DNA of 64,000 bases from the NCBI GenBank assembly GCA_964544915.1, contig CAZJDY010000015.1, positions 1,248 through 65,247 of the forward strand, read 5' to 3'. Source of the stretch: an uncultured Methanomassiliicoccaceae archaeon (GTDB lineage: Archaea; Thermoplasmatota; Thermoplasmata; Methanomassiliicoccales; JACIVX01). This document shows positions 21,427-54,875 of the stretch, piece by piece; position 1 is the first letter of the stretch; every line of letters begins with the position of its first letter. The notes beneath the pieces were generated by a model, which made no database searches, was not told where the DNA came from, and saw only the letters and a list, made by a program, of their open reading frames with translations. The translations under genes were made by a program, and so were the position numbers.

Positions 21427-21433
21427 GTCCGGA

Positions 21434-22450: not shown

Positions 22451-22458
22451 GTGGCGGT

Positions 22459-29180: not shown

Positions 29181-29184
29181 ACCT

Positions 29185-29976
29185 TCACCTCCTCTTCCTG
29201 AGCGCTTCCATTTCCACCCTGTGCTGTCTCTTGAACTTGGAGAAATCCCTGAGGGTTATGAACGGAACTGTGTACGATTTTATGTACGATCTGCCGCTGG
29301 GCCTTGCGTAGTGTGTGATAGGTATCTCCACGATTCTCATACCCTTGAGCGCGGCCAACGGGAGAATGAAGCGATGCAAGCCTCTGTAGCCCTCAGGATC
29401 GAACTGCATCGTGACAGCTTTCTCCCTTCGGAATGCCTTGAAGCCGCTGTTCTGGTCTTTGACCTTCAGTCCGAATCTTCTCTGTATGATGCGACGATTG
29501 TAAACGCTTGATATGAACTTCCTTATGAACGGATCGGTTCTTTGATGCCTCCAACCAGTGACGACATCATATCCCTCAGCGACTTTTTCAAGAAACAGCG
29601 TTATCTCTTTCGGTTCATACTGGCGATCCCCATCCATAATTATGATGACATCTCCTCTCGCTTCCTGGAACCCTGTTCTGATAGCGAAAGATCTTCCCTT
29701 GTTTACTTTGTGATGGATTGCTCTGACATTCTCGTGCCGTCTTGCTAGATCATCGCAGATCGCAGGGGAACGATCAACGCTGCCATCGTCAACGAGAACG
29801 ACCTCGCCATCAATCTTGTCAGATCTGTATACTTGAAGTATCGCCTCTGTCAGCGGCTCTATGTTATTCTCCTCGTCCTTTATCAGAAGCACTGTGCTGC
29901 ACTTCAGGCGAATCCCTCGGTCTTCACTGAGATTCCTGTGAATCAGTCGAAATTGACGGTTTGTGGCGTCCCTCAT
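29185..29976 (-). CDS. GT2 glycosyltransferase, polyprenol-phosphate sugar synthase-like (GtrB/DPM-like)
   Basis: VVLVDDGSVDRS...NKGRSFAIRTGF...IIIMDGDRQYEP is typical of the GT2 Dpm1/GtrB clade. Confidence 0.8.
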   Translation of the reverse strand: MRDATNRQFRLIHRNLSEDRGIRLKCSTVLLIKDEENNIEPLTEAILQVYRSDKIDGEVVLVDDGSVDRSPAICDDLARRHENVRAIHHKVNKGRSFAIRTGFQEARGDVIIIMDGDRQYEPKEITLFLEKVAEGYDVVTGWRHQRTDPFIRKFISSVYNRRIIQRRFGLKVKDQNSGFKAFRREKAVTMQFDPEGYRGLHRFILPLAALKGMRIVEIPITHYARPSGRSYIKSYTVPFITLRDFSKFKRQHRVEMEALRKRR

Positions 29977-33093: not shown

Positions 33094-33615
33094 GTGTGTG
33101 GTAGGTTCACGTTGATATTCGACTCGGAGTTCTTCAGGAGGTTCGCTCTACAATCAAGGAACGTCGAGATCTCCACAAGATACAATATCGCGCCGACGCA
33201 GGAGGTTCCGATAATCGTCAATGACGGCAGGAACAAGGTCTTCATGATGAGGTTCGGTCTTATCCCCTCCTGGTCGAAGGAAAAGAAAACGAGATACAGC
33301 CTCATCAACGCAAGGGCCGAGACCGTCACAAAGAAGCCGATGTTCCGCCGACTTCTCGCCAAGCATCGCTGCCTAGTTCCTACGACCGGCTTCTACGAAT
33401 GGAAGAAGGTCGGCAGTCGCAAGACCCCTCATTTCATTCGCGTGAAGTATGAGAACTACTTCGCACTCGCCGGACTCTGGGACCATTGGAAGGATCCGAA
33501 AGGAGAGGAGATCAAGTCCTTCACCATCATAACAACCAAGGCAAATGATGTCCTGAGCGAAATACATCCCCGGATGCCGGTGATACTCAGGAAAGAAGAT
33601 GAGGTATCTGGGTAG
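33094..33615 (+). CDS. SRAP (SOS-response-associated peptidase / abasic-site processing) domain protein, C-terminally short
   Basis: MCGRFTL (Cys2), INARAET, GFYEWKK and EIHPRMPVIL are SRAP catalytic motifs. It ends at 173 aa, 17 nt inside the integrase ORF. Confidence 0.8.
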   Translation: MCGRFTLIFDSEFFRRFALQSRNVEISTRYNIAPTQEVPIIVNDGRNKVFMMRFGLIPSWSKEKKTRYSLINARAETVTKKPMFRRLLAKHRCLVPTTGFYEWKKVGSRKTPHFIRVKYENYFALAGLWDHWKDPKGEEIKSFTIITTKANDVLSEIHPRMPVILRKEDEVSG

Positions 33616-34507
33616 TGTGTTCGAAGGCTTGAAGTCGCAAGGACTCATAAGCACGACCGACCCCAGGCACATAGGGCGGCGGGAGATCCAAGAACTCCTC
33701 TGTTATTTCAGGAAGAAAGGACTGGACGTCTCGACCCAGGATACCCACTTGAAGTATCTCAAAGCCATCCTGAAGACCTTCAAGAACCATGTGATCGATG
33801 ACATGGAATCCGAGGGGGTCAGGTTCCCGAAGCCCATTAAGAAGCCGATTTTTGCCTTGTCGATCGAGGAGCTGACCAAGATGTTCGCCTCGGTTAAGGA
33901 AATGGACCGGTGGGAGGGGTCGTTGGCGCGGGGGATAATCGCGCTCCATTTCGCTACCGGAGTTCGACCGGGGGAGCTACGAATGGCCCATGTTGAGGAT
34001 TTGAATCTAGAAGAGGGGACCTTTTTCGTTCGATTCCCTAAAGGACTGGGCAGATGGGCTTCACCGGAAAAGATCCCGCTCATTCGGGGCGACGTGGCAC
34101 ATCTACTGCGGCAATATCTCGAAGAAAGGGAAGAGTATCTGAAAGCGCGCGGCATCGACAAGGCGATAGCTCTATTCCCCAGTATCCGTAGCAAAACTGG
34201 ATTCTATTCCCGCCAAAGGTTCCAGGACATCAAGGAAGACATTGAGAGAATGTCAGGGGTCAAGTTCAAGTTGAAGGACTTCAGGCCAACCCTGGCAAGT
34301 ATTACGGTAGCAGGTGATCTCAGTCGATTGCCTGCCGTCTCGGCGCAACTGAGGCACTTGGACCCAAAGACAACGACGGATTTCTATGCGAGAATCGAAC
34401 TGAACACCGTCACTCGGCAGCTTCGGGACGTGTGGAAGGAAAACCCGACAACAATGTACAATACACCCGTTATTGAGAAAGAATATGACATATCTGGCTA
34501 TCAGTAA
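33599..34507 (+). CDS. Tyrosine recombinase / integrase
   Basis: 302 aa. Box I HFATGVRPGEL. C-terminal LRHLDPKTTTDFYARI with a candidate nucleophilic Tyr. N-terminal SAM-like core-binding helices (THLKYLKAILKTF). Confidence 0.85.
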   Translation: MRYLGSVFEGLKSQGLISTTDPRHIGRREIQELLCYFRKKGLDVSTQDTHLKYLKAILKTFKNHVIDDMESEGVRFPKPIKKPIFALSIEELTKMFASVKEMDRWEGSLARGIIALHFATGVRPGELRMAHVEDLNLEEGTFFVRFPKGLGRWASPEKIPLIRGDVAHLLRQYLEEREEYLKARGIDKAIALFPSIRSKTGFYSRQRFQDIKEDIERMSGVKFKLKDFRPTLASITVAGDLSRLPAVSAQLRHLDPKTTTDFYARIELNTVTRQLRDVWKENPTTMYNTPVIEKEYDISGYQ

Positions 34508-34613: not shown

Positions 34614-35783
34614 ATGTTCCTCACCCGGGATGAAGAAGCGGTCTTGAAAGGCGAGAAGGGATTGGGCGTCCAGCGGGCCATGGAATTGCTTGTAGCGATT
34701 GGCACCGTCTATGAGGCGGAACGTCTAATCCCAATAAGCTCGGCTCACCTCTCCGGAGTTTCCTATAAGACGATAGGCGAGGGGGGCGTCGACTTTCTGA
34801 CTAACATAGCCTCGGATTCGAAGGTCGTCGTAAAGACGACGCTTAACCCCGCGGGGATGGACCTCGTTCGCTGGGGAGAGATGAAGATCTCGAAGAGGTT
34901 CGCCGAGAGGCAACTTGAGATCATTGATTGCTATTCGAGGCTGGGTGTCGAGACCAATTGCACCTGTACCCCATACCTGGCAGGAAACCTCCCAAGAAAG
35001 GGTGATACCGTCGCCTGGGCCGAATCCTCTGCGCTCTCGTACATTAACTCGATCGTCGGCGCTCGAACGAACCGCGAAGGAGGCCCAGGGGCGCTAGCCG
35101 CCTCGATTCTCGGCAAGACACCAGCCTATGGCCTGCATCTCGACGAGAACCGGAAGCCGACCGTGGTGATAGATGCGGAGATTGACGGCGGGCTCTTCGA
35201 CCACACGCTCCTGGGGCAAGTTGTGGGCAAAAAGGTTGCGAATGCGGTCCCTTATTTTAGGAACATAAGGCCGAATCCCGACGAGGCTAAGACCCTTGCA
35301 GCGGCCATGGCCGCTTCAGGGTCTGTTGCGATGTTCCATGTAGAGGGGATGAAGCCCGAGGCAAACGATGCCGATCTGAAGGGACTCGAGAGGATTGGGG
35401 TCGAACGGAGAGATCTGATCGATGCGAGAGAAACCTTGTCCACTGGTCGGGAGCCGGATCTCATCGCTGTTGGCTGTCCACATCTGTCCGAGGCCGAGAT
35501 CCGAGATCTCGCCTCAATCTTGAAATGCAAGAGCAAGAAGACCGATATCGACGTCTGGTTCTGCACGTCGAAGGCCACGAGGAAGCGATGTCCGAAAGAG
35601 ATTGACGTACTGGAACGCTTTGGCAAGGTCCTGTGCGACACATGCATGGTCGTCGCTCCGATTGAGGATCACTATTCTTGCAGTGCCACGAATTCCGCGA
35701 AAGCGTGCAACTACCTGCCGACGCTCTGCTCGCAGAAGGTCGTCTGCGCTAGCGCGGCGGACTTGATGAAGATGGTCACATGA
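34614..35783 (+). CDS. Aconitase X large subunit (DUF521); mevalonate-5-phosphate dehydratase-type
   Basis: 389 aa. ISSAHLSGVSYKT...CTCTPYL...AWAESSA...FHVEG are motifs of DUF521/AcnX. Confidence 0.8.
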   Translation: MFLTRDEEAVLKGEKGLGVQRAMELLVAIGTVYEAERLIPISSAHLSGVSYKTIGEGGVDFLTNIASDSKVVVKTTLNPAGMDLVRWGEMKISKRFAERQLEIIDCYSRLGVETNCTCTPYLAGNLPRKGDTVAWAESSALSYINSIVGARTNREGGPGALAASILGKTPAYGLHLDENRKPTVVIDAEIDGGLFDHTLLGQVVGKKVANAVPYFRNIRPNPDEAKTLAAAMAASGSVAMFHVEGMKPEANDADLKGLERIGVERRDLIDARETLSTGREPDLIAVGCPHLSEAEIRDLASILKCKSKKTDIDVWFCTSKATRKRCPKEIDVLERFGKVLCDTCMVVAPIEDHYSCSATNSAKACNYLPTLCSQKVVCASAADLMKMVT

Positions 35784-36577
35784 TCCTGAGAGGGAGGGGA
35801 ATATTCAGGGGAATCGCAAGAGGTCCGATCGTAGCGCTGGACAGCCCTTTCAGCTTTCTCGGGGGAGTCGATCCGTCGACCGGTCTTCTCTCCGATTCAA
35901 ATGATGTCAGCATCGCCGGCAAGGTCCTCGCTTTCCCGACCGGAAAGGGGAGCACCGTCGGCTCCTATACAATGCTGGAGATGAAAAGGCAGGGAACGCT
36001 CCCGGCGGCGATTCTAAACAAGAAGGCCGAGCCGATCGTAACGACCGGTGCGGTCATGTGCGGCATCCCCCTGGTCGATTCAATCGACGTCTCAGTGCTT
36101 AGAAGCTGGGATGTGGCGATAGTGGACGGGACCGAGGGTACAGTCGAGGTCGAGGGAGTCGAAAAGAAGAGCGTTGTCACGTGCATCCTGATGAAGAGGG
36201 ACAGGTTCCTGATCCTGAAGAGGAGCGAGAAGGTCGGGACCTTCAGGGGCAAATGGGCAGGCGTCAGCGGGTACGTCGAGGTCGGCGAGGAGCCGATTCA
36301 GACAGCACTCAAGGAGATGTGCGAAGAAGTGAGGGTGACGGATGCCGAGCTTGTCAGGCAGGCCGATCCGATCGTCGTCCGTTCCGGTGAAATCGTGTGG
36401 GAGATACATCCCTTCCTCTTCAAGGTCAAGGGGGATGGGATAACGACGGACTGGGAACACACGGGGCACAGGTGGATCGTGCCGGACGAACTCCCGGGAT
36501 TCGACACTGTCCCGGGTTTCGACAGAGTGGTCGAGATGCTCCTCTCAAGGAAGATCGTTTCGACCGGAACGCGATGA
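35780..36577 (+). CDS. Aconitase X small (swivel, DUF126) subunit fused to a C-terminal Nudix hydrolase domain
   Basis: The N-terminal ~130 aa (GKVLAFPTGKGSTVGSY...LPAAILN) look like DUF126. The C-terminal ~135 aa carry a Nudix box, GYVEVGEEPIQTALKEMCEEVRV. 4-nt overlap with the large subunit. Confidence 0.75.
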   Translation: MILRGRGIFRGIARGPIVALDSPFSFLGGVDPSTGLLSDSNDVSIAGKVLAFPTGKGSTVGSYTMLEMKRQGTLPAAILNKKAEPIVTTGAVMCGIPLVDSIDVSVLRSWDVAIVDGTEGTVEVEGVEKKSVVTCILMKRDRFLILKRSEKVGTFRGKWAGVSGYVEVGEEPIQTALKEMCEEVRVTDAELVRQADPIVVRSGEIVWEIHPFLFKVKGDGITTDWEHTGHRWIVPDELPGFDTVPGFDRVVEMLLSRKIVSTGTR

Positions 36578-36614: not shown

Positions 36615-39600
36615 TCACATCGTGACGTCGACTTCTTTCTCCAGCAGGTTAAGCTCGTGGGGTTCCAGCGTCGATGGGTTTAGCGCCATCAGCAGTATGG
36701 CGTTCCTGATGGCGATTTGGTCCCTCAGCGACTGAACGAATCTCAAGACCGTGAGGAAGTTGTTGTTCGTGATGAGGTACTCGAGTCCGTCAAGCAAGAC
36801 TATGCTGCCCTTGCCAGGGTCCGCTGCGGTGATGAACTGCTCCAGGGACACGCTCAGTTTCTCGAGGTCCTTTGGCCTGAGCGTGTTCTCCTTTCCAACG
36901 TTCGATAGCCAGATGATCGGAGTGTCCCCGATGTTGTGCTTTGCCTTGATCTTCAGCGGGTAGTTCCTTGTGACGCAGAAGCCCTTGAGGCCCTCGGACA
37001 GGGCCTTGACGAAAAACGCGTAGGCCCGCTCGGCCTTCTCCTCTTTAATCAGGTAGGCGAATGACGGCTCGAGCTTGTAGTCCTCGGTCGAGATCGCCTC
37101 GCCCTCCTCCTCGACCTCCTCTTCCTCCGCGACCTCCGAGGGCGCCTCCGCCCCGCACGACGGGCATGTCACCGCATCCGGCGGAATGCTGGTCCCGCAC
37201 TTCTCGCACTTCACAGGGTTCTTGAATCCGCCAGCGTGGACATAGGCCATGATACTCTCTGCCGTCTTCGCACCGATCCCCTTGACATGACGGATCTCAT
37301 CCTTTGACGCAGCCTCGATCTTCTCTATGCCGTCGAACCCGGCATCGTACAGCATCTCCGCCTTGACCATGTTCATCCTCGGGATCCTGAGCAGGTAGGG
37401 GATGAGCTTATCCCTGGGCATTGATCCACCTTTGGCGACCAGGCTCTTCCCGCAGGACGAGCAGGTCTCGGACCCTTCTTTTATAGGGGTGCCGCATTCG
37501 GGGCATGTCTGCTCCGCGCCCGCCCCAGTCTTCTGCAAGTAGTGAATGATCTTCCTCGCGTCCGTCTTCGAGACGTTTCTTATCGCGGCTATCTCCTCCT
37601 CTGAAAGAGACTTCAGGTCGGTCGGCGACTTGTGCCCCGCCTCCACCAATCCAAGCGCCCCTTCCCGAGACAGTCCGGGTATCGCAGAGAACTGGCCTAT
37701 CGACTCCCTGGTATGTAGAGACGTCACGCCGACCTCGATGTCCTCTCCCTCAACCTCCCAGCTGACGACCCTCTCCCCTCCGGGTTCTTCAGTGAAATTC
37801 ATGTCCTTCGCCCTGGTCTCCTTCATCATGTGTTCCTTCCAGACCTTGAAGAACTCGATGAGCTTCGCAGAGGCCTTGACCTTCGCAGTGATGAACTCCT
37901 CCACGTCCAGATCCATGTCTTTTCTCATCTGCTGTATGCGCCTTATCAGGTCCCTGGCATAGCCCTCCGCTTCGATTTCCGGAGTCATCTCGAAGTCGAC
38001 GTAGACTTCGCCCTCGGAGAACTTAACGCTCGTGACGTCTGGGGGCAGTGAGGTTGTGAACGAGACCATGTTTGGTTCGATCTTGATCATCTGGCCTTCA
38101 ATGCCGAGAGAGTACTCTCCCTTTTCGATGCTCTCCTTTATCTGACATGCAGGCCTGCTCTTCAGAAGGATCGCTATCTTGCTGGACCATTGGCGATAGA
38201 CCTTCCCGATTGCCATCGGGTTCGGGATCACGTTGAGTATCAGATCTTTCCAGTCCTCATCAGGGTTGACGAACTCGACCCCTTTGAGGTTGGCCTGAGA
38301 GGCCAGGACGCCCTCGAGGGTTTTCAACATGTCCAGCGTTTCATTCGTGTTGGCCTTGATTGTCAGCCTTCTGAGCGGCCAGCGGAGCTTCACGCCCCTC
38401 GATTGCCTCTCCCTGGTCACTATCTCTACTATCTCCTTGACCAGGGACATTGCCCCTTCCAGCCTGTCATCCGCCTTTGTCAGGTCAGGAGTGGGCCAAT
38501 CCGACATGTGGACGGAGGCTTTCGAACCGTCGAGGTTCTGGTATATCTCCTCCGTTATGTGAGGGCAGAACGGCGCTAGCAGCTTGGTGAGCGACATCAA
38601 CGATTCGTAAAGGACCTTATAGGCCGCGATCTTGTCCAAGTCCCCTTCTTCTCTCCACATCCTGTCCCGGATCAGCCGTACGTACCATCGCGACAGGTCC
38701 TCGAGGATGAACTCCTCGAGGGCCCTGCAGGCCTTGTGCAGCTCGAACGATTCGAGATGCTTCGCGACCTCGTTCTTCAGCCTCTCGCTTCTGGATACCA
38801 ACCACCTGTCCTCGGGCCGAAGCGTCGCGGTAAGGCTCGCGTAGTCTACGGCATTCGGATCGAAGTGGTCGATTGACATGTACGTGGTCGCGAAGTTGCA
38901 GACGTTCCAGAGGACGTTCAGCGTGCGTCGAGCGTTCTTCACCCCTTCGCGCTGGAAGGCGATGTCCTCCCACGGGGCGTTTGCCTTCATCATGTAAAAT
39001 CTGAGCGCGTCCGCGCCGTGCTCGCCTATGACCTCTGCCGGTTCGATGGCGTTCCCCTTGCTCTTCGACATCGGTTGCCCCTGAGGGTCCAGTATCCAGC
39101 CGTGCATGAGCACCGACTCATATGGCGCTCTCTCGAAACCTATGCATCCTGCGGCGAGCTGCGAGTAGAACCAGCCGCGCGTCTGATCATGAGCTTCGGT
39201 GATCCACTTGGCGGGCCACCATCTGTCCAGTTCCTTCCTGCTGCCGGGAAATCCCAGCTGGGCCCAGGTCGACACACCAGAGTCGAACCAGACGTCGAGG
39301 ACGTCTGGCACTCGTTTCATCTTTCCTCCACACTTGTCGCACTTCAGAGTCACGGCGTCGATCCACGGTCTGTGGAGCTCCATCCCTTCGCGGTAACCGT
39401 CGGCACCCTTGAGGTCGTTGACCGAACCGATGACCTTCATCTCCCCGCACTGGCACCGCCAGATCGGCAACGGAATGCCCCAATACCTCTGTCGTGATAT
39501 GCACCAGTCCCTTGCGTTGACGGCCCAGTCGTACTCCCGTGACGACCCCGCCCAATCGGGGGTCCACCTGACCTTATCAATCTCCTCGAGCATGAGGTCC

Positions 39601-40877
39601 TTTATCTGGGTGATTCTCAAGAACCATTGAGAGGTCGTTCTGTATATGAGAGGAGAATCACACCTCCAGCAGTGCCCGTACCTGTGCTCGAGCGAGTGAT
39701 CGTAGAACATCAATCCCTTTTCCTTCAGCGCCTGAGCGATCTCGACGTTGGCATTCCTCGCGTGCATGCCAGAGAACTTCTCTCCTGCCTCGGAGCTGAA
39801 CTTGCCGCTCTCGTCAACCGGGCAGAACGCTTCGATTCCGAACTCCTGCCCGAGCTCGAAGTCCTCGGGACCATGGCCAGGAGCGATGTGCACCAACCCT
39901 GTGTTCTCCGCGGCTACGGTCGACGAAGGTATGACGCGGTGCGTCCATTTTCCTGTCACGGTCTTCTGGTACGGGATCTCGTCTTGGAACGGGGTCAGGT
40001 ACTCCATCCCGACCAGATCGTCACCCTCTATCAGCTCGGCGATCTCGTACTCGTCCCAATCCGCAAGCGCCCCGATCTCCTCCGCGAGGTCCTCCAGCAC
40101 GATGACGCTCTCCTTCTCCTTTCCTTCCGACCGGGAATATGTAACCTTAGCATAGGTGAAATCCGGATGAACCGCCACTGCCATGTTCGCCAAGAGGGTC
40201 CAGGGTGTGGTAGTCCAGATCAACAGGGACACGCCCTCCTCGTCCCGCAGAGGTAATTTCACGTAGATCGATGGGTCGCTCTCATCCCAGAATTCGATCT
40301 CAGCTTCGGCAAGTGCAGTCTCGCAACGTGGGCACCACGACAGCACGCGATTGGCGGATATCAGCAGACCCTTGTCATACGCCCGTCTTAGCGTCCACCA
40401 AGCCGCCTCGACGTATTCCGGAGAGATAGTGAGGTAGGGGTTGTCCCAGTCCATCCATACACCGAGCTCCTTGAACTGCTCGGTCATGCGTTTCTGGAAA
40501 TCGATGGCGAAGTTCTTGCACGTGCTGACGAACTTGTCTATCCCGTAGTCCTCGATCTCCTTCTTGTTCTTCACCCCAATCGTCCGCTCGACCTTGACCT
40601 CGATCGGCAGGCCGTGCATGTCATAGCCAGGCTGATCGCGGACGTTGAACCGCTGCATTCGCTTATATCTAATGATCGTGTCCTTCAGGCTCTTGTTCCA
40701 CGCTGTTCCTAGATGGATCGAGCCAGTAGTGTAGGGAGGACCATCCACGAAGTAAAAATCCGCACCGCTCGAGCGAAGCTCCTTGACCTTCTTGTATGTG
40801 TTGTTGCGGTTCCAATTCTCTCTTACCTTCTTCTCGAGTTCCGCCGGATTGTATGTGGATTGGACCTGCTTTATCAT
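36615..40877 (-). CDS. ileS: Isoleucyl-tRNA synthetase with ~365-aa C-terminal HhH/Zn-ribbon/DUF835-like extension
   Basis: 1420 aa. PPYTTGSIHLGTA (HIGH), KMSKSKGN (KMSKS) and the editing domain are present. The tail is described in the findings. Confidence 0.95.
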   Translation of the reverse strand: MIKQVQSTYNPAELEKKVRENWNRNNTYKKVKELRSSGADFYFVDGPPYTTGSIHLGTAWNKSLKDTIIRYKRMQRFNVRDQPGYDMHGLPIEVKVERTIGVKNKKEIEDYGIDKFVSTCKNFAIDFQKRMTEQFKELGVWMDWDNPYLTISPEYVEAAWWTLRRAYDKGLLISANRVLSWCPRCETALAEAEIEFWDESDPSIYVKLPLRDEEGVSLLIWTTTPWTLLANMAVAVHPDFTYAKVTYSRSEGKEKESVIVLEDLAEEIGALADWDEYEIAELIEGDDLVGMEYLTPFQDEIPYQKTVTGKWTHRVIPSSTVAAENTGLVHIAPGHGPEDFELGQEFGIEAFCPVDESGKFSSEAGEKFSGMHARNANVEIAQALKEKGLMFYDHSLEHRYGHCWRCDSPLIYRTTSQWFLRITQIKDLMLEEIDKVRWTPDWAGSSREYDWAVNARDWCISRQRYWGIPLPIWRCQCGEMKVIGSVNDLKGADGYREGMELHRPWIDAVTLKCDKCGGKMKRVPDVLDVWFDSGVSTWAQLGFPGSRKELDRWWPAKWITEAHDQTRGWFYSQLAAGCIGFERAPYESVLMHGWILDPQGQPMSKSKGNAIEPAEVIGEHGADALRFYMMKANAPWEDIAFQREGVKNARRTLNVLWNVCNFATTYMSIDHFDPNAVDYASLTATLRPEDRWLVSRSERLKNEVAKHLESFELHKACRALEEFILEDLSRWYVRLIRDRMWREEGDLDKIAAYKVLYESLMSLTKLLAPFCPHITEEIYQNLDGSKASVHMSDWPTPDLTKADDRLEGAMSLVKEIVEIVTRERQSRGVKLRWPLRRLTIKANTNETLDMLKTLEGVLASQANLKGVEFVNPDEDWKDLILNVIPNPMAIGKVYRQWSSKIAILLKSRPACQIKESIEKGEYSLGIEGQMIKIEPNMVSFTTSLPPDVTSVKFSEGEVYVDFEMTPEIEAEGYARDLIRRIQQMRKDMDLDVEEFITAKVKASAKLIEFFKVWKEHMMKETRAKDMNFTEEPGGERVVSWEVEGEDIEVGVTSLHTRESIGQFSAIPGLSREGALGLVEAGHKSPTDLKSLSEEEIAAIRNVSKTDARKIIHYLQKTGAGAEQTCPECGTPIKEGSETCSSCGKSLVAKGGSMPRDKLIPYLLRIPRMNMVKAEMLYDAGFDGIEKIEAASKDEIRHVKGIGAKTAESIMAYVHAGGFKNPVKCEKCGTSIPPDAVTCPSCGAEAPSEVAEEEEVEEEGEAISTEDYKLEPSFAYLIKEEKAERAYAFFVKALSEGLKGFCVTRNYPLKIKAKHNIGDTPIIWLSNVGKENTLRPKDLEKLSVSLEQFITAADPGKGSIVLLDGLEYLITNNNFLTVLRFVQSLRDQIAIRNAILLMALNPSTLEPHELNLLEKEVDVTM

Positions 40878-45749: not shown

Positions 45750-46901
45750 ATGGTTGACATGACATCGAGGGAAAGGGTCATTAAGGCAGTGGAAAGGAAG
45801 GAGCCGGACCGGGCCCCTATCGATTTCGGAGGGGTCGTCGCCGGCATAGTGATTGGACCGCCACATGGTTACGGGGCTCTTTGCCGTCAGCTCGGGATCA
45901 CCGACCCTGAGACCCCGGTCATCAACACGAGGCTCAGCAGCGTTCAGAACGTCGACGAGCGCATCCTCCGAAGGTTCAGGGTGGACACGAGGCACGTGAA
46001 CATTGGCGGCGAACCGCTGCAGGAGCTTCCGGACGGGAGGTACAGGGACGCCTGGGGACTGATTCTCAAACAATCCGGGTTGTACAAGAGCATCCCGGAC
46101 AGTCTCGCGCCCCTAAGGGACGCTTCTACCCAGGACGAAATAGAGGGCTACAAGTACTGGCCGGACCCGAGGAATCCCGCCTTCGTCAAGCAGAAGAGGA
46201 AGGAGGCCAAGCGCCTGCACGAACAGACGGACTTCGCCGTATTCTCGCATCCCGGATACGCGGGCAGGATCTTCCACATGTACGCCGGGTTGAGGGGGTT
46301 CGACAAGTGGCTGCTCGACATGAAGATGGAGCCGGATTTCTACAAGACGTTCGCGGACAAGATAACCGATGTCGCGATCGATGTTTGTGAAGCGTTCTAT
46401 GGTGAGGTGGGGGATTACACTGACGTCGCCGTCTACTACGACGACATGGGAATGCAGACTGGCGGTTTTGTGTCCCCAGACGATTTTCGTCAGTTCGTGA
46501 GGCCGTACACGGGCAGGTACGTCAAGGCGATCAAGAAGATGACTGGTGCGAGACTCTTCTATCACACTTGCGGTTCCGTTTATTCCTATATGAATGACAT
46601 AATCGAAATGGGAATCGACATCCTGAACCCGATTCAGCCCCTGGCGAAGAACATGGATCCCAGGATTCTGAAGTCGGAGTTCGGAAAGCGTATCTGCTTC
46701 CACGGCGGGATCGACGAGCAGAAGCTGCTGCCTTTCGGGTCGAAAAGGGACGTGGAGAAGTCGGTCGCCAAAACGGTTAATATACTGGCTCCAGGTGGCG
46801 GATGGATCGTGGCACCCGCCCACAACATACAACCCGACACCCCGCCGGAGAACATAATAGCCATGTACGACACGGCCTTTGAGACGGCGAGCAATCTGTA
46901 A
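45750..46901 (+). CDS. Uroporphyrinogen-decarboxylase (URO-D) family protein, possibly a corrinoid-dependent MT2-type methyltransferase
   Basis: 383 aa with URO-D-like C-terminal half. The H-T-C in LFYHTCGS plus a downstream Cys (RICFHGG) resemble the Zn site of MtaA/MtbA-type enzymes. Confidence 0.6.
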   Translation: MVDMTSRERVIKAVERKEPDRAPIDFGGVVAGIVIGPPHGYGALCRQLGITDPETPVINTRLSSVQNVDERILRRFRVDTRHVNIGGEPLQELPDGRYRDAWGLILKQSGLYKSIPDSLAPLRDASTQDEIEGYKYWPDPRNPAFVKQKRKEAKRLHEQTDFAVFSHPGYAGRIFHMYAGLRGFDKWLLDMKMEPDFYKTFADKITDVAIDVCEAFYGEVGDYTDVAVYYDDMGMQTGGFVSPDDFRQFVRPYTGRYVKAIKKMTGARLFYHTCGSVYSYMNDIIEMGIDILNPIQPLAKNMDPRILKSEFGKRICFHGGIDEQKLLPFGSKRDVEKSVAKTVNILAPGGGWIVAPAHNIQPDTPPENIIAMYDTAFETASNL

Positions 46902-47635: not shown

Positions 47636-48832
47636 ATGGGCAAGAATATCTTCGTTGAGCAAGTTGACCACATTCCTGTCAACAAGCAGAGAGTCGAGCT
47701 TGTCGAGCGAAAGGGCATAGGGCACCCTGACAGCATTGCTGACGGATTGTCGGAGTCTGTCAGTAGAGCCCTGAGCCAGATGTATATCGAACGTTACGGA
47801 AGGATTCTGCATCACAATACCGACGAGACGCAGATCGTAGGCGGGCAGTCTTCTCCCAAGTTCGGCGGAGGTGTCATGCTTGAACCGATATACGTCTTGC
47901 TAGTCGGCCGCGCCACGACTGATGTCAACGGAGAGAGATTACCCTTCAGATCCACTGCGATTAAGGCCGCCTCGGATTATCTCAAGATGCACTTCCCCAA
48001 CCTTGACGTCGGAACGGACGTCATGTTGGACTGCATGATTGGAAGGGGAAGCGTCGATCTCAGTGCGGTATACGAGACGAAGAAGCTTCTGGCGAACGAT
48101 ACCTCCTTCGGTGTCGGGTACGCGCCCCTGAGCGAGACGGAAAAGGTCACGCTCGAGACGGAGAAGTACGTCAACGGGGACATGAAGAGGAAGCTGAAGG
48201 AGACGGGGGAGGACGTCAAGGTGATGGCATCCCGCGTCGGCGACGAGTTGTCACTCACAGTCGCTTGTGCCATGGTCGACAGGTACATCGACGACCCTGA
48301 CCACTACCAGAGCGCCATAGCCGATATGAAGAGCATGATCGTTGACCATGCCGCGAAATTCACGGGCCTGGACGTCAAGGTCTACATCAACACTGCTGAC
48401 AACTACAAGGATGGGATATACTACCTGACCGTCACGGGGTTGTCAATGGAGAACGGGGACGACGGCTCTGTGGGAAGGGGCAACAGGGTGAACGGACTCA
48501 TCACGCCCTTTAGGCCGATGAGCATGGAGGCTGCGGCAGGCAAGAACCCAGTGACGCATGTCGGGAAGCTCTACAACATCCTCGCGAAGATCATAGCCGA
48601 TGAGATCGCAGAGATGGGCGGTGGAGATATCTACGAGGCGAGGGTCAGGATCCTGTCCCAGATTGGCAGACCGATATACGATCCCCAGACCGCGAGCGTT
48701 CAGCTCAACATTGCGAAGAACGCGAAGTTCTCCAAGCTCAAGTCGGAGGCAGAGCGGATCGTCGACTACTGGTTGGAGAATATCGGACAGATAACAAGCA
48801 AAGTAGTAAATGGCGAAATCACCGTATTCTAA
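47636..48832 (+). CDS. mat: S-adenosylmethionine synthetase, archaeal type
   Basis: 398 aa. [15 protein letters not shown]...[11 protein letters not shown]...[17 protein letters not shown] is typical of archaeal MAT. Confidence 0.92.
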
Positions 48833-48835
48833 CGG

Positions 48836-49420
48836 ATGAGACTTGTCGACCTTCCGAAATACGGCCCTGTGCACCGTTTCGCAGATTACCACGTGTACAG
48901 CGTCCTCTCCATACTTACTGATCGGAAACGCAGGGGAAGGAAGCAGCTTGCCGAACTTGTAGGAGTGGGCGAGGGCAGCATGCGAACGATACTTGGCTGG
49001 ATGAGGGAGAAGGGACTAGCCAGCGTAAAGCAGACCGGCGTGAGGATTACCAACACCGGCCTGGAGTTCTTTTCCAGGTTGCCGGTTCATGTCAGGAATA
49101 TGGAGTCGTCGGATATCTCGGTCGGCAGCTGCAATGTCGCCGTTCTTGTCAGCGGGAGAAAGGAGGAGGTCGGCTCTGGCATAGAGCAGCGAGACGCGGC
49201 GATCAAGGCTGGGGCGGATGGCGCCACGACGATCGTGGTCAAAGGCGGGAGACTGATCGTACCGACAGACTATGATCTTGACAAGGAGGATTCGGATCTA
49301 GCATCGTCGATAAGGGATCTTTTCGAATTGAAGGATGGCGATGTCATTATCGTCGGCAGTGCCACATCCAGGAAGATTGCAGAAGAAGGAGCACTCGCGG
49401 CTGCTCTCGAACTCTTGTGA
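48836..49420 (+). CDS. wHTH-containing protein (DUF4443-like by recollection), 4 nt downstream of mat
   Basis: 194 aa. N-terminal RRGRKQLAELVGVGEGSMRTILGWMREKGL is a winged helix. C-terminal alpha/beta domain. Confidence 0.5.
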   Translation: MRLVDLPKYGPVHRFADYHVYSVLSILTDRKRRGRKQLAELVGVGEGSMRTILGWMREKGLASVKQTGVRITNTGLEFFSRLPVHVRNMESSDISVGSCNVAVLVSGRKEEVGSGIEQRDAAIKAGADGATTIVVKGGRLIVPTDYDLDKEDSDLASSIRDLFELKDGDVIIVGSATSRKIAEEGALAAALELL

Positions 49421-49593
49421 ACACCGAGACTTCTGGTCTGAATCCGAAATCGCGTTGCCGTCATTTTGGCGGCTCTCATTCTGGTTAGGTATAGGTGAGA
49501 AAGGACTATATATGACGAGCACATTAGCCTCATTAGTTGGATGATACATCCAACTAATTGCATACCAGAAAGATAGAGAAGGGAGGGCAATCG

Positions 49594-51258
49594 ATGAAAT
49601 TTGCGTCTTTCTTGACACTCCTGATGATTCTCAGCGCGTCTATTGCGGTTGCTGTGTCCGCTGCGGACGATGGGTCTGAGGGATGCCTGGTTCTGATCGA
49701 CTTTGGGAATGGTAAGGTTCTCTGGACAAGCGTCGAAGTCCAGGAGAACTTGAGCGCGTTCAACGTCACAATGGATGCCGCCGGGCAGCTCGGCTTGGAC
49801 GTCAGCTATTCCGAATCCTCGTTCGGGGTCTTCGTGAACGGAATCGGGGGAGTGATGGGGGACTGGCCGAATGAATGGTGGCATTTCTGGATATGGAACC
49901 CTGCGAGCAAGGCGTGGGAAAGTGCCACGCAAGGGCCATCTTCAGTGGCAGCGAAGGATATCGTCGCAATAGCATGGAGCTATGTGATGGACAGGCCTGA
50001 CTTCTCGGCCCAGTCTCCTCTCGCGACTCCCGACCACAAGTACCCTTGGACGAGTCTTAGGCATGACCTTCTGAGCACTGGGTCATCACAAACTGGTTCT
50101 TCGGCGAAGATTAGTCTGGATTGGGACAAGGACCTGACCAATGGTCCTGTTTCAACGTCAGTCGTTGCCGCAAACGATCGCCTCTACGTCCTCACATCCG
50201 GTGTGTATGATTGGACTCAGATGACATACGACTCCCCTCCCCACCTATCCTGCCTGAACCGGGCGGGAGAAATCTTATGGAACGCAACCATTGACGGGGC
50301 TAAGTACCAGATCGCTTCTCCAATGATAACCGAGGACTTCGTGGTCGTGCCGTCCTCGAACGGGAAAGTGTACGCATTCGACTCGAAGACCGGAGCCCCC
50401 TACTGGATTTCCGGAATCGAATCGTCCGGAACGGGATTGACGTCGTCCCCAATACTCTACAGGAATCAGGTCATCGTCGGAGGCGGTGACGGGAAGCTGT
50501 ACTCGTTTGCCGATAACGGAACTCTCCTCTGGGCGACCAAGGTCGCATCCTCGATCTACTTCTCCTCCCCCGCTGCGCGCGACGGGATGGTGTACATCGG
50601 CTCGGAGGAGGGACAGTTGCACGCTGTTGCGGCAAATGGAACCGGTGAGATATGGAACGTGACAGTGGGAGGGAAGGTGCGCTCGGCTCCATTGCTTCTC
50701 GAGAATGAGATTGTGGTGACGTATTCGACCTACGAGGATATCACCGCCGTTGACGGAGGAGCGGTCGCGGTCTCATACGATGGCGAGGAGCTGTGGAGAG
50801 TGGACGTGAATGCAACCTCGAGCTCTGCGGCTGAGACCATTAGTGGAGTCGTGGTCTCTTCGGCGGATGGTCTGACGATGATATCACTGGGCGGGCAAGT
50901 CATTTGGAGGACGAGTCTGGGAGCTCACATCACAGGATCGCCCTCGGTGGGAAAAGACGCGATATATGCGGTAACGTCCGAGGAGCAGAGCCGCGTGGTC
51001 GCAGTCAGTCTCTCGGGAGCGATAATTTGGTCCTATGCACTCGAGCCTAAGCAATACTCCATGTGCTCTCCGACAATATCGGACGATGTCCTCTACGTGA
51101 CATCGGACAACGGCCATGTGTACGCGTTCTCTTTGATCGAACCTGAACAGGTCGGAGGCGGGAATATGCTGTTACTTATCATTGTCTTCATCGGGATCTT
51201 CACAATCCTGATGATTGGCGCAATAGGTAACTGGATTGGCAGGAAGAGAGAAGGTTAG
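49594..51258 (+). CDS. Secreted, C-terminally membrane-anchored protein: DUF4430 (transcobalamin-like C-terminal) domain plus PQQ-like beta-propeller
   Basis: Signal peptide MKFASFLTLLMILSASIAVAVSA. WWHFWIWNPASKAWE...IVAIAWSY is DUF4430-like. Repeated GKVYAFD/GKLYSFA/GQLHAV/GHVYAF propeller blades. C-terminal TM LLLIIVFIGIFTILMIGAIG. ATG 49594 with GGAGGG upstream. Confidence 0.7.
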   Translation: MKFASFLTLLMILSASIAVAVSAADDGSEGCLVLIDFGNGKVLWTSVEVQENLSAFNVTMDAAGQLGLDVSYSESSFGVFVNGIGGVMGDWPNEWWHFWIWNPASKAWESATQGPSSVAAKDIVAIAWSYVMDRPDFSAQSPLATPDHKYPWTSLRHDLLSTGSSQTGSSAKISLDWDKDLTNGPVSTSVVAANDRLYVLTSGVYDWTQMTYDSPPHLSCLNRAGEILWNATIDGAKYQIASPMITEDFVVVPSSNGKVYAFDSKTGAPYWISGIESSGTGLTSSPILYRNQVIVGGGDGKLYSFADNGTLLWATKVASSIYFSSPAARDGMVYIGSEEGQLHAVAANGTGEIWNVTVGGKVRSAPLLLENEIVVTYSTYEDITAVDGGAVAVSYDGEELWRVDVNATSSSAAETISGVVVSSADGLTMISLGGQVIWRTSLGAHITGSPSVGKDAIYAVTSEEQSRVVAVSLSGAIIWSYALEPKQYSMCSPTISDDVLYVTSDNGHVYAFSLIEPEQVGGGNMLLLIIVFIGIFTILMIGAIGNWIGRKREG

Positions 51259-51267
51259 GCGAGAGAG

Positions 51268-51771
51268 ATGAAGTCCGGGAGCCTTGCATGGCTGGTCGTC
51301 ACTGTGACGGTCGTCGCAGCCGTCATGCTCTCGGGCTGTCTCTCCGGAGGTGACGGCGGAAGCGAGCAGCGGACCGCCTCCCTCATCATCGATTTCAAAG
51401 GGAACGGAGGATTGACAAACCCAGGCAATCTGACGACATGGACGAAGGTCGAGAATACTTGGATGCCCACAACTTTGTCGAACGGCGGTAAGACGGTGTG
51501 GGTGTTCAATAATGTGACGTCCGGTTCCACAGTCTTGGACCTAGTTGAGGAATGCTCCAAGATCGGCGGTTTCGAGATAGTGACGAAGCACTACATCGGC
51601 CTGGGGACCCTCGTGGAGTCGATCGGCGGGGTCCACAATGAGAAACCAGGGCGGGGATGGCAGTACTACGTAAACGGGCAGTATGCCACAAAGGCTTGCG
51701 ACCTGTTTGCGATGGACAACAATGACGTCGTCACCTGGATGTTCGCAGACCTGACAGATTTTGCGCGGTAG
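51268..51771 (+). CDS. DUF4430-domain lipoprotein
   Basis: Signal peptide plus lipobox-like LSGC. C-terminal GRGWQYYVNGQYATKACDLFAMDNNDVVTWMF is typical of DUF4430. Confidence 0.7.
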   Translation: MKSGSLAWLVVTVTVVAAVMLSGCLSGGDGGSEQRTASLIIDFKGNGGLTNPGNLTTWTKVENTWMPTTLSNGGKTVWVFNNVTSGSTVLDLVEECSKIGGFEIVTKHYIGLGTLVESIGGVHNEKPGRGWQYYVNGQYATKACDLFAMDNNDVVTWMFADLTDFAR

Positions 51772-51776
51772 GTCAC

Positions 51777-52643
51777 ATGCTATTTCCCTACAAGAACACA
51801 TCGTCCAGAATCCACGGCCTCGATGCGAGGCCGAAGATAGTGTTCGTCTTTGCCGTGTTCGTTTCCTCAATTCTGCTATCCGACATACTGTATCTCTCGG
51901 TCCTACTCGCGTTAGTTCTGATAGTTTCAGCGGTCGCTCGCACCCTCAAATCCACTTTGAGCCTTCTGAGATACGCTGTCTTCGTCGCTATCTTCGTCAT
52001 ACTGTTCAACGTGCTGCTTTCTAGCGGAAGGGACGTGGTGTTCATGCTGGGATCGATCGCCGTCACAAGTGAGTCGATCCTCTTCTCGATCAGCATGTGT
52101 CTCCGGCTCTTCCTTGCGGTCTCCGCATTCTCACTCCTCACATTCGCCATCCATCCAGACGAAGCCCTCAGGACGATGTCGAAGGTAGGGTACAAGACCA
52201 TGACTGCATTGTCTCTCTCGACGAGGATGTATCCTACGATCGCCGCAGATTCAAGGAACATCATGGATTCGATGCGGGCCAGGGGGGTCGAGTTCGATCG
52301 TGGCGGATTCTTCACCAAGCTGAGGGCGAGAGCTAACGTCGTCATGCCGCTGCTCTTCAACTCGCTTGACCGATCGATCGCCATCGCTGAGGCGATGGAG
52401 ACCAGGGGTTTCGGGGCAGGAAGGCGAACGAACTACTCTGAGGCGAGACTGTCCCGAGGGCAGAAGTGGATGGTCGCCTTCTTCGTGCTTTCCATTATTG
52501 TCGGCATCGCCTTGTTTGTGTTCGGATATGGGAATGCTGACTATCTGAACGGCGCGGGCTTCGTCTACGGATTCGACGACCTGATCGTTCTCGCAGTGTA
52601 TGTCATCCTTCTCTCTCCGATATTGGTCGGGGGTGGAGAATGA
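51777..52643 (+). CDS. ECF transporter transmembrane (T) component, CbiQ/EcfT family
   Basis: 288 aa. Coupling-helix motifs MRARGV and AMETRGF. Confidence 0.85.
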   Translation: MLFPYKNTSSRIHGLDARPKIVFVFAVFVSSILLSDILYLSVLLALVLIVSAVARTLKSTLSLLRYAVFVAIFVILFNVLLSSGRDVVFMLGSIAVTSESILFSISMCLRLFLAVSAFSLLTFAIHPDEALRTMSKVGYKTMTALSLSTRMYPTIAADSRNIMDSMRARGVEFDRGGFFTKLRARANVVMPLLFNSLDRSIAIAEAMETRGFGAGRRTNYSEARLSRGQKWMVAFFVLSIIVGIALFVFGYGNADYLNGAGFVYGFDDLIVLAVYVILLSPILVGGGE

Positions 52644-54106
52644 TCTCGGTCGAGGCCATGACGTTCACCTATGCGGGGTCCGATTGCCCGGTCCTCAAGG
52701 ACGTTTCCACGCGGATAAGCGAGGGCGAGTTCGTTCTTGTCGTAGGGAGGTCTGGATGCGGGAAATCAACGCTGTGTCGGGCACTGAACGGCCTTGTTCC
52801 CCACTTCCACGGAGGGCTTCTCTCCGGAAGAGTCCTCGTCGACGGACGAGACACGAGGAAGACCCCCCCATCCAGATTCGCAGACCTGATAGGAATGGTG
52901 TTTCAGGATCCCGAGAATCAGCTCGTCATGACGAACGTCGAGAACGAGATGGCGTTCGGTCTGGAGAACCTCGGGGTTCCGGTCTCGGAGATGAAGGAGC
53001 GCGTGATCCGGTACGCCGATTACTTCGATCTCAGAAGGTTCTTCCAACGTTTCATCCCCGAGCTATCGGGCGGCGAGAAGCAGAAGGTTGCGCTTGGCTC
53101 GGTCCTCGCCATGAAGCCGAAGTACCTAATTTTGGACGAACCGACCTCCCAACTCGACGCCGAGAACGCGGCCCTGTTCCTGGAATTCCTGACAAAGCTC
53201 AATAAGGATTTCGGTGTCGGAATAATCCTCGTTGAGCACAGATTGGAGCGATGCCTGCCCTATGCCGACCGCGTGATATTGATGAATGAGGGCAGGATAG
53301 TCGCAGACGGGCCGAAAGACGAGGTCGTCCCGGCCCTGAAGGAAAGTGGTCTTCTCGGAACCGTTTCCAGGATGATCGCTGATGTCGCCGGCAATGGAGA
53401 TTCTTTGCTGTCGGCGAAGGACATACACTTCTCATATGACCAGACGCCCGTCCTCGATGGGGCTGATTTGGTCCTTGCAAGGGGTGAGCTCGTCGCGATC
53501 ACTGGGGCGAACGGAAGTGGCAAGTCAACGCTCATCAAACAGTTGAATGGTCTGCTGAAGCCGCAAACGGGGATCGTCACACTGTTGGGAAGGGACGTGT
53601 CCTCTGTCACGACCGCGAGCATCGCCAAGGAAATCGGATATCTGGGTCAGAACCCGAACGACTATCTGTTCGAGGAGACGCTTGAGAAGGAGCTTGAATT
53701 CACACTGTCTAATCTCGGAGTCGATACGAAGGAATGGAATGAGCGGATTGAATGGACCCTTTCGATGCTGGACCTCGCAAGGTTCAGGGGGATGTTCCCG
53801 CGCGACCTTAGTTGTGGGCAGAGAGAACGCACCGCGTTGGCAACAATCCTTGTCGGGCGGCCGAAGATCCTCATTCTCGATGAACCGACTAGGGGTCTCG
53901 ACTACTGGAGCAAGACGAAGTTAGGCTCCATGCTCGAGAGTCTGAGGAGGCAGGGCATGGCAATCCTCTTAGTGACTCATGACTATCGATTCATAGCCGA
54001 GCATGCGACGCGTATCCTTCGCCTGGAAGGAGGGCGGTTGCTTGAAGTTCCTGTCGACCAAATGGTCTTCCTCGCATCGGAGAGTGCGGCGACCGGAGGT
54101 ACCTGA
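52640..54106 (+). CDS. ECF transporter ATPase, fused tandem ABC domains (EcfA-EcfA')
   Basis: 488 aa. Walker A GRSGCGKST and GANGSGKST. Signatures LSGGEKQKV and LSCGQRERT. Confidence 0.9.
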   Translation: MISVEAMTFTYAGSDCPVLKDVSTRISEGEFVLVVGRSGCGKSTLCRALNGLVPHFHGGLLSGRVLVDGRDTRKTPPSRFADLIGMVFQDPENQLVMTNVENEMAFGLENLGVPVSEMKERVIRYADYFDLRRFFQRFIPELSGGEKQKVALGSVLAMKPKYLILDEPTSQLDAENAALFLEFLTKLNKDFGVGIILVEHRLERCLPYADRVILMNEGRIVADGPKDEVVPALKESGLLGTVSRMIADVAGNGDSLLSAKDIHFSYDQTPVLDGADLVLARGELVAITGANGSGKSTLIKQLNGLLKPQTGIVTLLGRDVSSVTTASIAKEIGYLGQNPNDYLFEETLEKELEFTLSNLGVDTKEWNERIEWTLSMLDLARFRGMFPRDLSCGQRERTALATILVGRPKILILDEPTRGLDYWSKTKLGSMLESLRRQGMAILLVTHDYRFIAEHATRILRLEGGRLLEVPVDQMVFLASESAATGGT

Positions 54107-54107
54107 T

Positions 54108-54875
54108 ATGTCTGTCTCAAAGAAGACGATCATACCCCTCTTCGGTGCTGTCTTCACTTTGCTGGTGTTCCTCCTTGTGTCGGTCTTCGCGAAAGAGAGT
54201 CTGGCTACCTATGCGACAATCCTTGCATTCTTCTTCGTGCTCTTCCTTATGATTCTCCTGTTCGCGAGGTTCGAGGAATCGGCAATCAGCTCGAAGGAGG
54301 TCGCATTAGTCGGGATTCTCGCGGCTATAACGGCCGCGGCCCGAATCCCCTTCGCAGCCCTGCCGAACATCCAGCCGTGTACGTTCCTGATAATCGCGAC
54401 CGGTATCGTGTTCGGGCCTCTGGCAGGAGTTATGGTCGGGAGCATGACAGCTGCAGTGTCGAACATGTTCCTCGGTCAGGGCCCTTGGACTGTCTGGCAG
54501 ATGGCCAGCTGGGGTTTGGTCGGCCTTCTGTCCGGGTTCATCGGCAAGAGAAGACAGCAGATCGGACCGCTCGGGATCGCCGTTCTGGGCGCGATTCTCG
54601 GCATGGTCTACAACACCATCATGGATTTCTCTAGCTGGGTGTGGCTATACGGTCTCGATCCGACAAAGTTCCTCGCTGTCTACTCTCTCGGACTTCCATT
54701 CGGCATCGCCCATTCGATAGGAAATGTGGTCTTCGCGTTGGCGCTGGGAAAGCCGGTGCTCTTTGCGTTCAGGAGGTTCCAGCGAAGATTCCACGTCGCG
54801 TATGTCGACGAGGGCTTGCCGAGAACTCAGGCAGGTGGAGGAGTCGATGAGTTGGTCAGTCAAGAGAGAACTTGA
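54108..54875 (+). CDS. ECF transporter substrate-capture (S) component-like membrane protein
   Basis: ATG 54108 lies 1 nt after the ATPase stop. About 6 helices. AARIPFAALPNIQPCTFLII is an S-component-like motif. Substrate unknown. Confidence 0.6.
   Translation: MSVSKKTIIPLFGAVFTLLVFLLVSVFAKESLATYATILAFFFVLFLMILLFARFEESAISSKEVALVGILAAITAAARIPFAALPNIQPCTFLIIATGIVFGPLAGVMVGSMTAAVSNMFLGQGPWTVWQMASWGLVGLLSGFIGKRRQQIGPLGIAVLGAILGMVYNTIMDFSSWVWLYGLDPTKFLAVYSLGLPFGIAHSIGNVVFALALGKPVLFAFRRFQRRFHVAYVDEGLPRTQAGGGVDELVSQERT

Follow-up and report, generated by a model that had tools for sequence, protein, structure and literature searches.

Five tightly packed plus-strand open reading frames (ORFs), here called g1 to g5, lie at positions 49594-54875 of the 64,000-nucleotide stretch of an uncultured Methanomassiliicoccaceae archaeon analysed here (contig CAZJDY010000015.1; hereafter the window). 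We consider it likely that they form one operon for a dedicated group I importer of corrinoids (a cobamide or a precursor such as cobinamide) of the energy-coupling factor (ECF) type. The ORF coordinates were checked, and the gaps between successive genes are 9, 5, -4 and 1 nucleotides (nt), in agreement with an earlier description made from the sequence alone. The five genes are as follows.

49594-51258, plus strand: g1, 554 amino acids (aa), with a signal peptide, a transcobalamin-beta-like (divergent DUF4430/SLBB) domain, an 8-bladed PQQ/BamB-like propeller and a C-terminal transmembrane (TM) anchor
51268-51771, plus strand: g2, an N-terminally anchored DUF4430 protein of 167 aa (PF14478 E 1.2e-13, residues 86-159)
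51777-52643, plus strand: g3, EcfT (CbiQ family), the transmembrane coupling subunit (PF02361 E 2e-22)
52640-54106, plus strand: g4, a fused EcfA-EcfA' ATPase with two ABC domains (ABC_tran twice; TIGR04520 and TIGR04521)
54108-54875, plus strand: g5, a CbrT-family S component of 255 aa (PF07155/PF12822; PDB 6FNP_A)

In the arrangement that we favour, g5 would be the membrane-embedded, substrate-specific (S) component, and g3 and g4 would energise it by ATP hydrolysis. The g1 and g2 proteins, anchored at the C-terminus and the N-terminus respectively, would be tethered to the outside of the membrane, each presenting a transcobalamin-beta-like domain, and may there capture scarce corrinoid and hand it to the S component. 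Corrinoid uptake is well supported because three independent lines of evidence point to it, namely the homology of g5 to CbrT, the riboswitch control of bacterial operons of the same type and a candidate archaeal operator that this operon has in common with genes for BtuF-like, CbiM and CobN proteins. A corrinoid cargo, which had been raised as a possibility in the sequence-only reading, is thereby strengthened.

The five-gene unit recurs in other Methanomassiliicoccales, in one locus (L003) with the same flanking genes as in the window and in two (L004 and L005) with entirely different ones, which shows that the genes do not stand together by chance. In a more distant relative (L006), the propeller protein, EcfT, EcfAA' and the S component are retained and the separate DUF4430 gene is missing; the propeller protein there still carries a DUF4430-like domain.

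Profile searches bear out the earlier description of a complete ECF module. The 488 aa g4 protein scores 384 bits against TIGR04520 (cut-off 315) and 371 bits against TIGR04521 (cut-off 330), both of them NCBIfam ECF-ATPase models, and the match of g3 to TIGR02454 falls below the cut-off. The g5 gene begins 1 nt after g4 and its product matches PF07155 (E 4e-14) and PF12822 (E 2e-9). With EcfT, two EcfA-type domains and an S component in one operon, g3 to g5 have the predicted make-up of a group I transporter, in which the module is dedicated to a single system. The name 'riboflavin' attached to PF07155 is misleading for g5. When the single g5 sequence was compared with all PDB sequences there was one good S-component match, 6FNP chain A (E 1.8e-9), and a profile of the g5 family (26 members) retrieved the same chain at E 9.3e-23, with the next S component, 4HZU_S, at 0.24. 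RibU, FolT, ThiT and BioY gave no match to g5 in the PDB search at E<=10. The structure 6FNP is that of ECF-CbrT from Lactobacillus delbrueckii, which has been shown to transport cobalamin and cobinamide (PMC5997447). Since the match to 6FNP_A is this specific, we assign g5 to the CbrT family, and an S component that had been described as of unknown specificity can be given one: by homology to the characterised CbrT, a predicted specificity for corrinoids is well supported. The CbrT-like core spans residues 64-227, and about 60 hydrophobic residues precede it as an N-terminal extension.

We next turn to how widely this gene arrangement is found. A profile scan with the S component over a collection holding one genome per species identified at least 598 stretches that encode relatives, in Firmicutes, Dehalococcoidia, Actinobacteria, Armatimonadota, Altiarchaeota, Aciduliprofundum/DHVE2, Methanofastidiosum and Thermoplasmata. 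The best 80 of these at least 598 stretches were annotated, and the 61 of them for which at least 4.6 kb of sequence was available upstream were informative. It can be seen that EcfT and a fused EcfAA' adjoin the S component in 60 of the 61, and that at least one DUF4430 gene lies upstream of it on the same strand in 56, in several bacterial and archaeal phyla, so the co-occurrence of DUF4430 with ECF modules that the sequence-only reading had proposed to look for is indeed found. At least two DUF4430 genes are present upstream in 44 of the 61, typically one large and multidomain and one small. PF14478 was confirmed by Pfam in all nine proteins checked outside Methanomassiliicoccales. The large bacterial DUF4430 proteins carry as partners prenyltransferase/squalene-cyclase alpha-toroids and the wall anchors SLH, CWB2 and Big_2 (Pfam); toroids, which have the fold of the transcobalamin alpha domain, occur for example in L067 and L021. 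Fusion to a propeller was seen in 3/61 loci, all three from Methanomassiliicoccales. In two of the annotated loci, from Clostridium muellerianum (L020) and C. carboxidivorans (L063), extra pairs of small DUF4430 genes and a second CbrT-like S component lie downstream of the main operon, at about 8.7-12.5 kb, followed in L063 by a second cobalamin riboswitch; these additional sets may point to multiple corrinoid specificities.

Rfam scans at the gathering threshold link the bacterial operons to cobalamin. Fourteen Firmicutes loci were testable, having at least 400 nt of upstream sequence available, and in 12 of them a cobalamin riboswitch (RF00174, 87-139 bits) lies directly before the first DUF4430 gene (L013, L032, L038, L041, L043, L056, L059, L063, L067, L072, L077 and L079; L032 has two in tandem). 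The remaining two are one negative locus (L050) and one ambiguous locus (L023). Together with the census, these results indicate that a CbrT-type ECF importer nearly always comes with genes for one or two transcobalamin-like surface proteins, in many cases preceded by a B12 riboswitch, contrary to the working assumption that extracytoplasmic binding proteins have no part in ECF transport.

The surface proteins themselves were examined by profile and structure comparison. For g2, the assignment to DUF4430 made from the sequence alone holds, with a PF14478 score of 51.7 bits against a gathering score of 23.8 (Pfam); a PDB sequence search with g2 gave no match. The LSGC lipobox that had been noted in g2 is present in the window and in close relatives, and an alignment of g2 orthologues shows that it is absent from L003, L004, P0129 and P0130. 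What is conserved is an N-terminal hydrophobic segment, and anchoring through it is the safer prediction of how g2 is attached.

The g1 protein can be divided into three parts downstream of its signal peptide.

49675-49989, plus strand: transcobalamin-beta-like beta-grasp domain (residues ~28-132; hhalign, AlphaFold2 model and Foldseek)
50101-51138, plus strand: 8-bladed beta-propeller (residues ~170-515; PQQ_2 E 3e-33)
51160-51252, plus strand: C-terminal transmembrane helix (residues 523-553, helical in the model; hydrophobic LLLIIVFIGIFTILMIGAIGNWIG followed by RKREG)

The DUF4430-like domain that the sequence-only reading had placed at the start of g1 finds support in profile-profile comparison and in fold, and fails on the Pfam model. 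BLASTP between g1 and g2 gave E 5e-4, a hidden Markov model (HMM) built from g2 orthologues matches the N-termini of g1 orthologues, and an iterated HMM search on the g1 N-terminal domain reached E 5e-19. When the two families were compared using hhalign, they aligned over 102 columns with a probability of 96.2% (E 2.2e-9). An AlphaFold model of g1 residues 1-180 has a mean predicted local distance difference test score (pLDDT) of 86-97 in 10-residue blocks across residues 31-150, and the top 19 PDB matches returned by Foldseek for the domain are all transcobalamin, intrinsic factor, haptocorrin or 3U7Z, a DUF4430 protein of Ruminococcus gnavus. Against isolated beta domains the template modelling score (TM-score) is 0.73-0.81 (Foldseek). 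Taken together, sequence comparison and modelling identify the predicted N-terminal domain of g1 as transcobalamin-beta-like.

The full-length AlphaFold2 model of g1 (pLDDT 90.4, predicted template modelling score 0.85) shows the signal peptide, beta-grasp domain, propeller and C-terminal helix in turn, which together with the PQQ_2 match agrees with the signal peptide, multi-blade PQQ-like propeller and C-terminal anchor described earlier. The best fold matches of the propeller are the 8-bladed Cake8 (TM-score 0.91), BamB and YxaL. A BtuG-like identity for the propeller was considered and rejected, with BtuG absent from the 39 PDB sequence matches and from the top 50 fold matches. No alpha6/alpha6 toroid family was detected in g1 or g2 by profile search, and the g1 model consists of beta-grasp and propeller. 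The propeller would thus occupy the position that in many bacterial counterparts belongs to the alpha/alpha-toroid, the second jaw of transcobalamin. One protein encoded on a 65.9-kb JGI contig (P0159, 632 aa) joins both surface proteins in a single ORF, comprising a propeller protein, two TM segments and a g2-like DUF4430 domain that matches the g2 family at E 1e-33.

We know of no B12 riboswitch in archaea, nor of any equivalent to one. A regulatory RNA ahead of g1 had been suggested as worth a search, and the 173-nt region upstream of g1 yielded no Rfam match of note: positions 48800-49800 gave only sub-threshold noise at E<=10, and folding of the region was unremarkable (minimum free energy z-score -1.8). 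Instead, the following features precede g1.

48836-49420, plus strand: helix-turn-helix (HTH) plus DUF4443 protein (PH0730 family), candidate regulator (Pfam match; PDB 2P8T E 2e-13)
49504-49514, plus strand: TATA-like box ACTATATATGA, putative operon promoter, read from the sequence; an A/T-rich box is equally spaced, about 20-25 nt ahead of the palindrome, in related loci
49532-49558, no strand: perfect 12+12 palindrome ATTAGTTGGATG-ATA-CATCCAACTAAT, candidate operator overlapping the expected transcription start

The palindrome sits about 18 nt after the TATA-like box and 36 nt before the ATG of g1, and is the sole match in the window at <=3 mismatches (0.2 by chance). Its core, GTTGGATG-N3-CATCCAAC, is kept with 0-3 mismatches before the g1 orthologue in L002-L006 and L010-L012, and occupies this position in all Methanomassiliicoccales loci examined, including L004 with its different neighbours. 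At <=2 mismatches the core occurs once in the window and has no copy elsewhere in the roughly 1 Mb of loci fetched. The central triplet is either ATA or TAT, so that both orientations are used, and changes in the arms are one-sided; for these reasons a dimeric DNA-binding protein is favoured over an RNA element.

Scanning metagenome contigs for exact matches to the palindrome returned 99 stretches; contigs that bear the motif include L097, L108, L115, L121, L124, L127 and L185, as well as L088 and L101-L186. In the informative contigs the genes found directly behind the palindrome were as follows.

7 metagenome contigs: DUF4430-propeller gene of an ECF operon
12 metagenome contigs: BtuF/IsdE-like Peripla_BP_2 binding protein, of several subfamilies
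2 metagenome contigs: further such binding protein
2 metagenome contigs: cbiM-cbiQ-cbiO
1 metagenome contig: CobN-type chelatase

An eighth contig (L159) retains only a DUF4430-like ORF beside the palindrome. An ABC ATPase follows about 2 kb downstream in six of the 12 BtuF/IsdE-like loci, and the informative contigs share one order of elements: TATA-like box, palindrome, Shine-Dalgarno-like sequence and start codon. The CbiM cluster that bears the palindrome is named Bathyarchaeia, not Methanomassiliicoccales. These associations suggest that the palindrome marks an archaeal cobalt/corrinoid regulon under a DNA-binding protein. About one third of the metagenome matches lie in eukaryotic-looking gag/CCHC retroelement sequence with a G+C fraction (GC) of 0.38-0.45 and were treated as chance, as were isolated matches beside genes for a helicase, a resolvase, a cytochrome bd oxidase and an alcohol dehydrogenase. 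In one of the BtuF-like loci (L107, 3293-4576) the gene downstream of the palindrome encodes a BtuF-like protein with an extra N-terminal domain resembling that of g1 (BLASTP E 5e-4). The idea that all 12 BtuF-like proteins are DUF4430 fusions was rejected, as hhalign finds the extra domain in L107 only. The fusions in L107 and P0159 count in favour of the corrinoid-import reading.

Which protein might read the palindrome was considered from gene neighbourhood. The HTH-DUF4443 gene adjoins the ECF operon in the window and in six other loci (L003, L006, L010, L108, L115 and L124), lies inside a BtuF-like ABC operon, at its end, in L158 (9294-9962), and is near the ECF-CbrT locus of a metagenome-assembled genome of Methanofastidiosum (L062, 536-1147). 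In most cases it also follows a gene for SAM synthetase. It is not adjacent in L004, and no homologue was found in L011, L012, L097, L121, L127 or L185. The HTH-DUF4443 protein as reader of the palindrome is put forward as speculation. In the arrangement that we favour, a dimeric DNA-binding protein acting at the palindrome, between TATA box and start codon, probably controls expression, and the operon would sit in a cobalt/corrinoid-uptake regulon that functionally replaces the bacterial B12 riboswitch.

Several known systems can be set beside this operon. ECF-CbrT of L. delbrueckii (PDB 6FNP; Santos et al., 2018, PMC5997447) has a homologous S component, EcfT and two ATPase domains, and its substrates, cobalamin and cobinamide, are those expected here too. 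CbrT of L. delbrueckii, with 182 aa, belongs to the group II S components and shares a general ECF module, whereas the module here is dedicated; further differences are that EcfA and EcfA' are fused, that the S component is extended by about 60 residues at its N-terminus and that two DUF4430 proteins are co-encoded. The closest precedent in the literature is the work of Burroughs, Balaji, Iyer and Aravind (2007), who defined the SLBB superfamily and within it a transcobalamin-like clade (PMC1796856). Members of the clade were described as having signal peptides, wall anchors and fusions to toroid, Ig, fasciclin and, occasionally, beta-propeller domains, frequently with a second paralogue in the operon and with CbiO/CbiQ neighbours, in many hosts without B12 synthesis; scavenging of B12 or its precursors was predicted, and archaeal examples were mentioned (PMC1796856). 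The front-end is thus not undescribed, as the sequence-only reading had it, since transcobalamin-like SLBB surface proteins with CbiO/CbiQ operons were predicted at that time (PMC1796856). Those operons likewise encode anchored or secreted domains resembling the transcobalamin C-terminus, and a beta-propeller fusion was noted in a Clostridium protein; the study predates the recognition of ECF transporters, of CbrT and of Methanomassiliicoccales, and made no link to riboswitches or to an archaeal operator. New here are the conserved operator and, in one archaeal order, a fixed SLBB-propeller-TM architecture; the operon type itself was predicted long ago, and the core of its transporter is already characterised.

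The lsa1836-1840 operon of Lactobacillus sakei (Verplaetse et al., bioRxiv 10.1101/864751) also has five genes, encoding an S component, fused ATPases, EcfT, a transcobalamin-beta-like protein and a second surface protein, which in that case is an alpha-toroid (transcobalamin alpha-like) and not a propeller fusion; its authors argue for heme. The mammalian carriers transcobalamin, intrinsic factor and haptocorrin share the fold of their beta (C-terminal) domain with g1 and g2. Unlike them, g1 and g2 have no alpha6/alpha6 toroid, are membrane-anchored and would act upstream of an ECF transporter. BtuG of Bacteroides is a B12-binding beta-propeller surface lipoprotein that works with BtuB. It resembles g1 by analogy only, each being a surface-anchored propeller tied to a B12 importer, and a ligand-binding role for the g1 propeller is hypothetical; unlike BtuG, the g1 propeller is 8-bladed and PQQ/BamB-like.

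A number of observations weigh against corrinoid import with the surface proteins as its front-end. Corrinoid binding by the DUF4430 accessory proteins, and their feeding of the ECF S component, are unproven predictions from sequence. PF14478 was not detected in g1 residues 1-169 or 1-219, even at E<=10. No cobalamin riboswitch was found within 8 kb upstream of any of 11 Dehalococcoidia/Chloroflexota loci with the same operon (L021, L022, L026, L028, L034-L036, L042, L053, L057 and L064). The binding proteins linked to the palindrome score alike to BtuF and IsdE, leaving BtuF, heme and siderophore types unseparated. Among about 30 ORFs scanned in the 64-kb window, which is not a genome-wide sample, there was no cobamide-biosynthesis gene. 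The only experimentally studied homologous operon, lsa1836-1840 of L. sakei, was read as a heme importer (bioRxiv 10.1101/864751). Finally, a study of 243 Methanomassiliicoccales genomes found anaerobic B12 synthesis mostly present, often incomplete, and BtuFCD widespread (PMC10804542). In favour of uptake, many of the genomes have gaps in the anaerobic pathway and carry BtuFCD, and the order depends on corrinoid methyltransferases; on the opposing side, uptake is not obligatory, because anaerobic cobamide synthesis is largely encoded (PMC10804542). The same caveat about B12-making archaea was raised by Burroughs et al. (PMC1796856).

One alternative is that the DUF4430 proteins capture, and the transporter imports, another tetrapyrrole, namely heme, coenzyme F430 or a sirohydrochlorin-type precursor. 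The link of lsa1836-1840 to heme uptake and the similar scores of the palindrome-linked binding proteins to BtuF and the heme protein IsdE would fit this, as would the 'distinct metabolite' that Burroughs et al. proposed for B12-making archaea (PMC1796856). We nevertheless regard it as unlikely, given that cobalamin riboswitches control bacterial operons of the same type, that the S component is specifically CbrT-like and that the palindrome regulon takes in the cobalt transporter CbiMNQO and a CobN-type chelatase. To our knowledge Methanomassiliicoccales have no cytochromes, which counts against heme, and F430 is disfavoured because the same operon is found in the non-methanogens Aciduliprofundum, Altiarchaeota and Dehalococcoidia.

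It could also be that g1 and g2 have no part in transport and serve at the surface or in the envelope in another way (in adhesion or an S-layer, for example), merely co-transcribed with a self-sufficient ECF-CbrT. The census makes this improbable: DUF4430 genes precede the ECF genes in 56/61 informative loci, in distant phyla and with varying partner domains, and the riboswitch stands ahead of the DUF4430 genes rather than of the ECF genes. Moreover, the fold of the g1 domain is that of the B12-contacting domain of transcobalamin. The L. delbrueckii ECF-CbrT does move B12 in proteoliposomes without an accessory protein (PMC5997447), and PQQ-like propellers are widespread as archaeal surface domains of unknown function. 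The distant relative without a stand-alone DUF4430 gene, L006, might be counted on the same side, but its propeller protein retains the DUF4430-like domain. That the module is a cobalt or nickel ion transporter, as the matches of g3 to 'CbiQ, cobalt transport protein' and of g4 to cbiO models and the palindrome in common with cbiMNQO might suggest, is highly improbable, given that the operon has no CbiM, CbiN or NikM component, that the S component matches vitamin-type families and CbrT, and that the names CbiQ and CbiO are applied generically to EcfT and EcfA proteins.

We conclude that corrinoid import by a dedicated ECF transporter is the probable function of the operon. All of the energy metabolism of Methanomassiliicoccales, which are methanogens of gut and rumen, passes through corrinoid proteins. 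The way in which they obtain cobamides is relevant to competition for B12 in the gut and to methane mitigation. The survey of 243 genomes of the order discusses BtuFCD and cbiMNQO only and leaves an ECF system unmentioned (PMC10804542). Two linked readings go further, and we hold them jointly as a tentative proposal whose chances we put at somewhat below even. According to the first, the capture front-end has been rebuilt, with the g1 propeller replacing the alpha-toroid as partner of the beta domain and, together with g2, feeding the ECF S component; if so, there would be an accessory binding-protein step that is absent from textbook ECF transport. According to the second, GTTGGATG-N3-CATCCAAC would define a previously undescribed archaeal regulon in which one operator serves this operon, BtuF-like ABC importers, CbiMNQO and CobN, possibly read by the HTH-DUF4443 protein. 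The conserved palindrome offers an entry point to the regulation of archaeal corrinoid and cobalt genes.

Other genes in the window were also inspected. A URO-D-fold protein encoded at 45750-46901, which had been tied to the operon as a possible corrinoid-dependent enzyme, was rejected as a linked gene: its match to MtaA/CmuA is weak (68 bits against a cut-off of 235) and it is absent from the otherwise syntenic L003, relative to which it is inserted between the genes for RNase Z and an HTH-CBS protein. On the minus strand, 36615-40877 encodes a 1420-aa class I aminoacyl-tRNA synthetase (tRNA-synt_1, Anticodon_1 and DUF5915) with an unusual fusion, its C-terminal extension carrying zinc ribbons, helix-hairpin-helix motifs and a DUF835 domain. 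On the plus strand, 34614-36577 encodes an aconitase X large subunit followed by a protein that joins an AcnX swivel domain to a NUDIX hydrolase domain. At about 16000-30000 and 33599-34507, a stretch of lower GC (0.47-0.50, compared with about 0.55) contains glycosyltransferase and sugar-epimerase genes and a gene for a large AAA/TPR protein; with a phage-type integrase gene nearby, it may be an acquired island.

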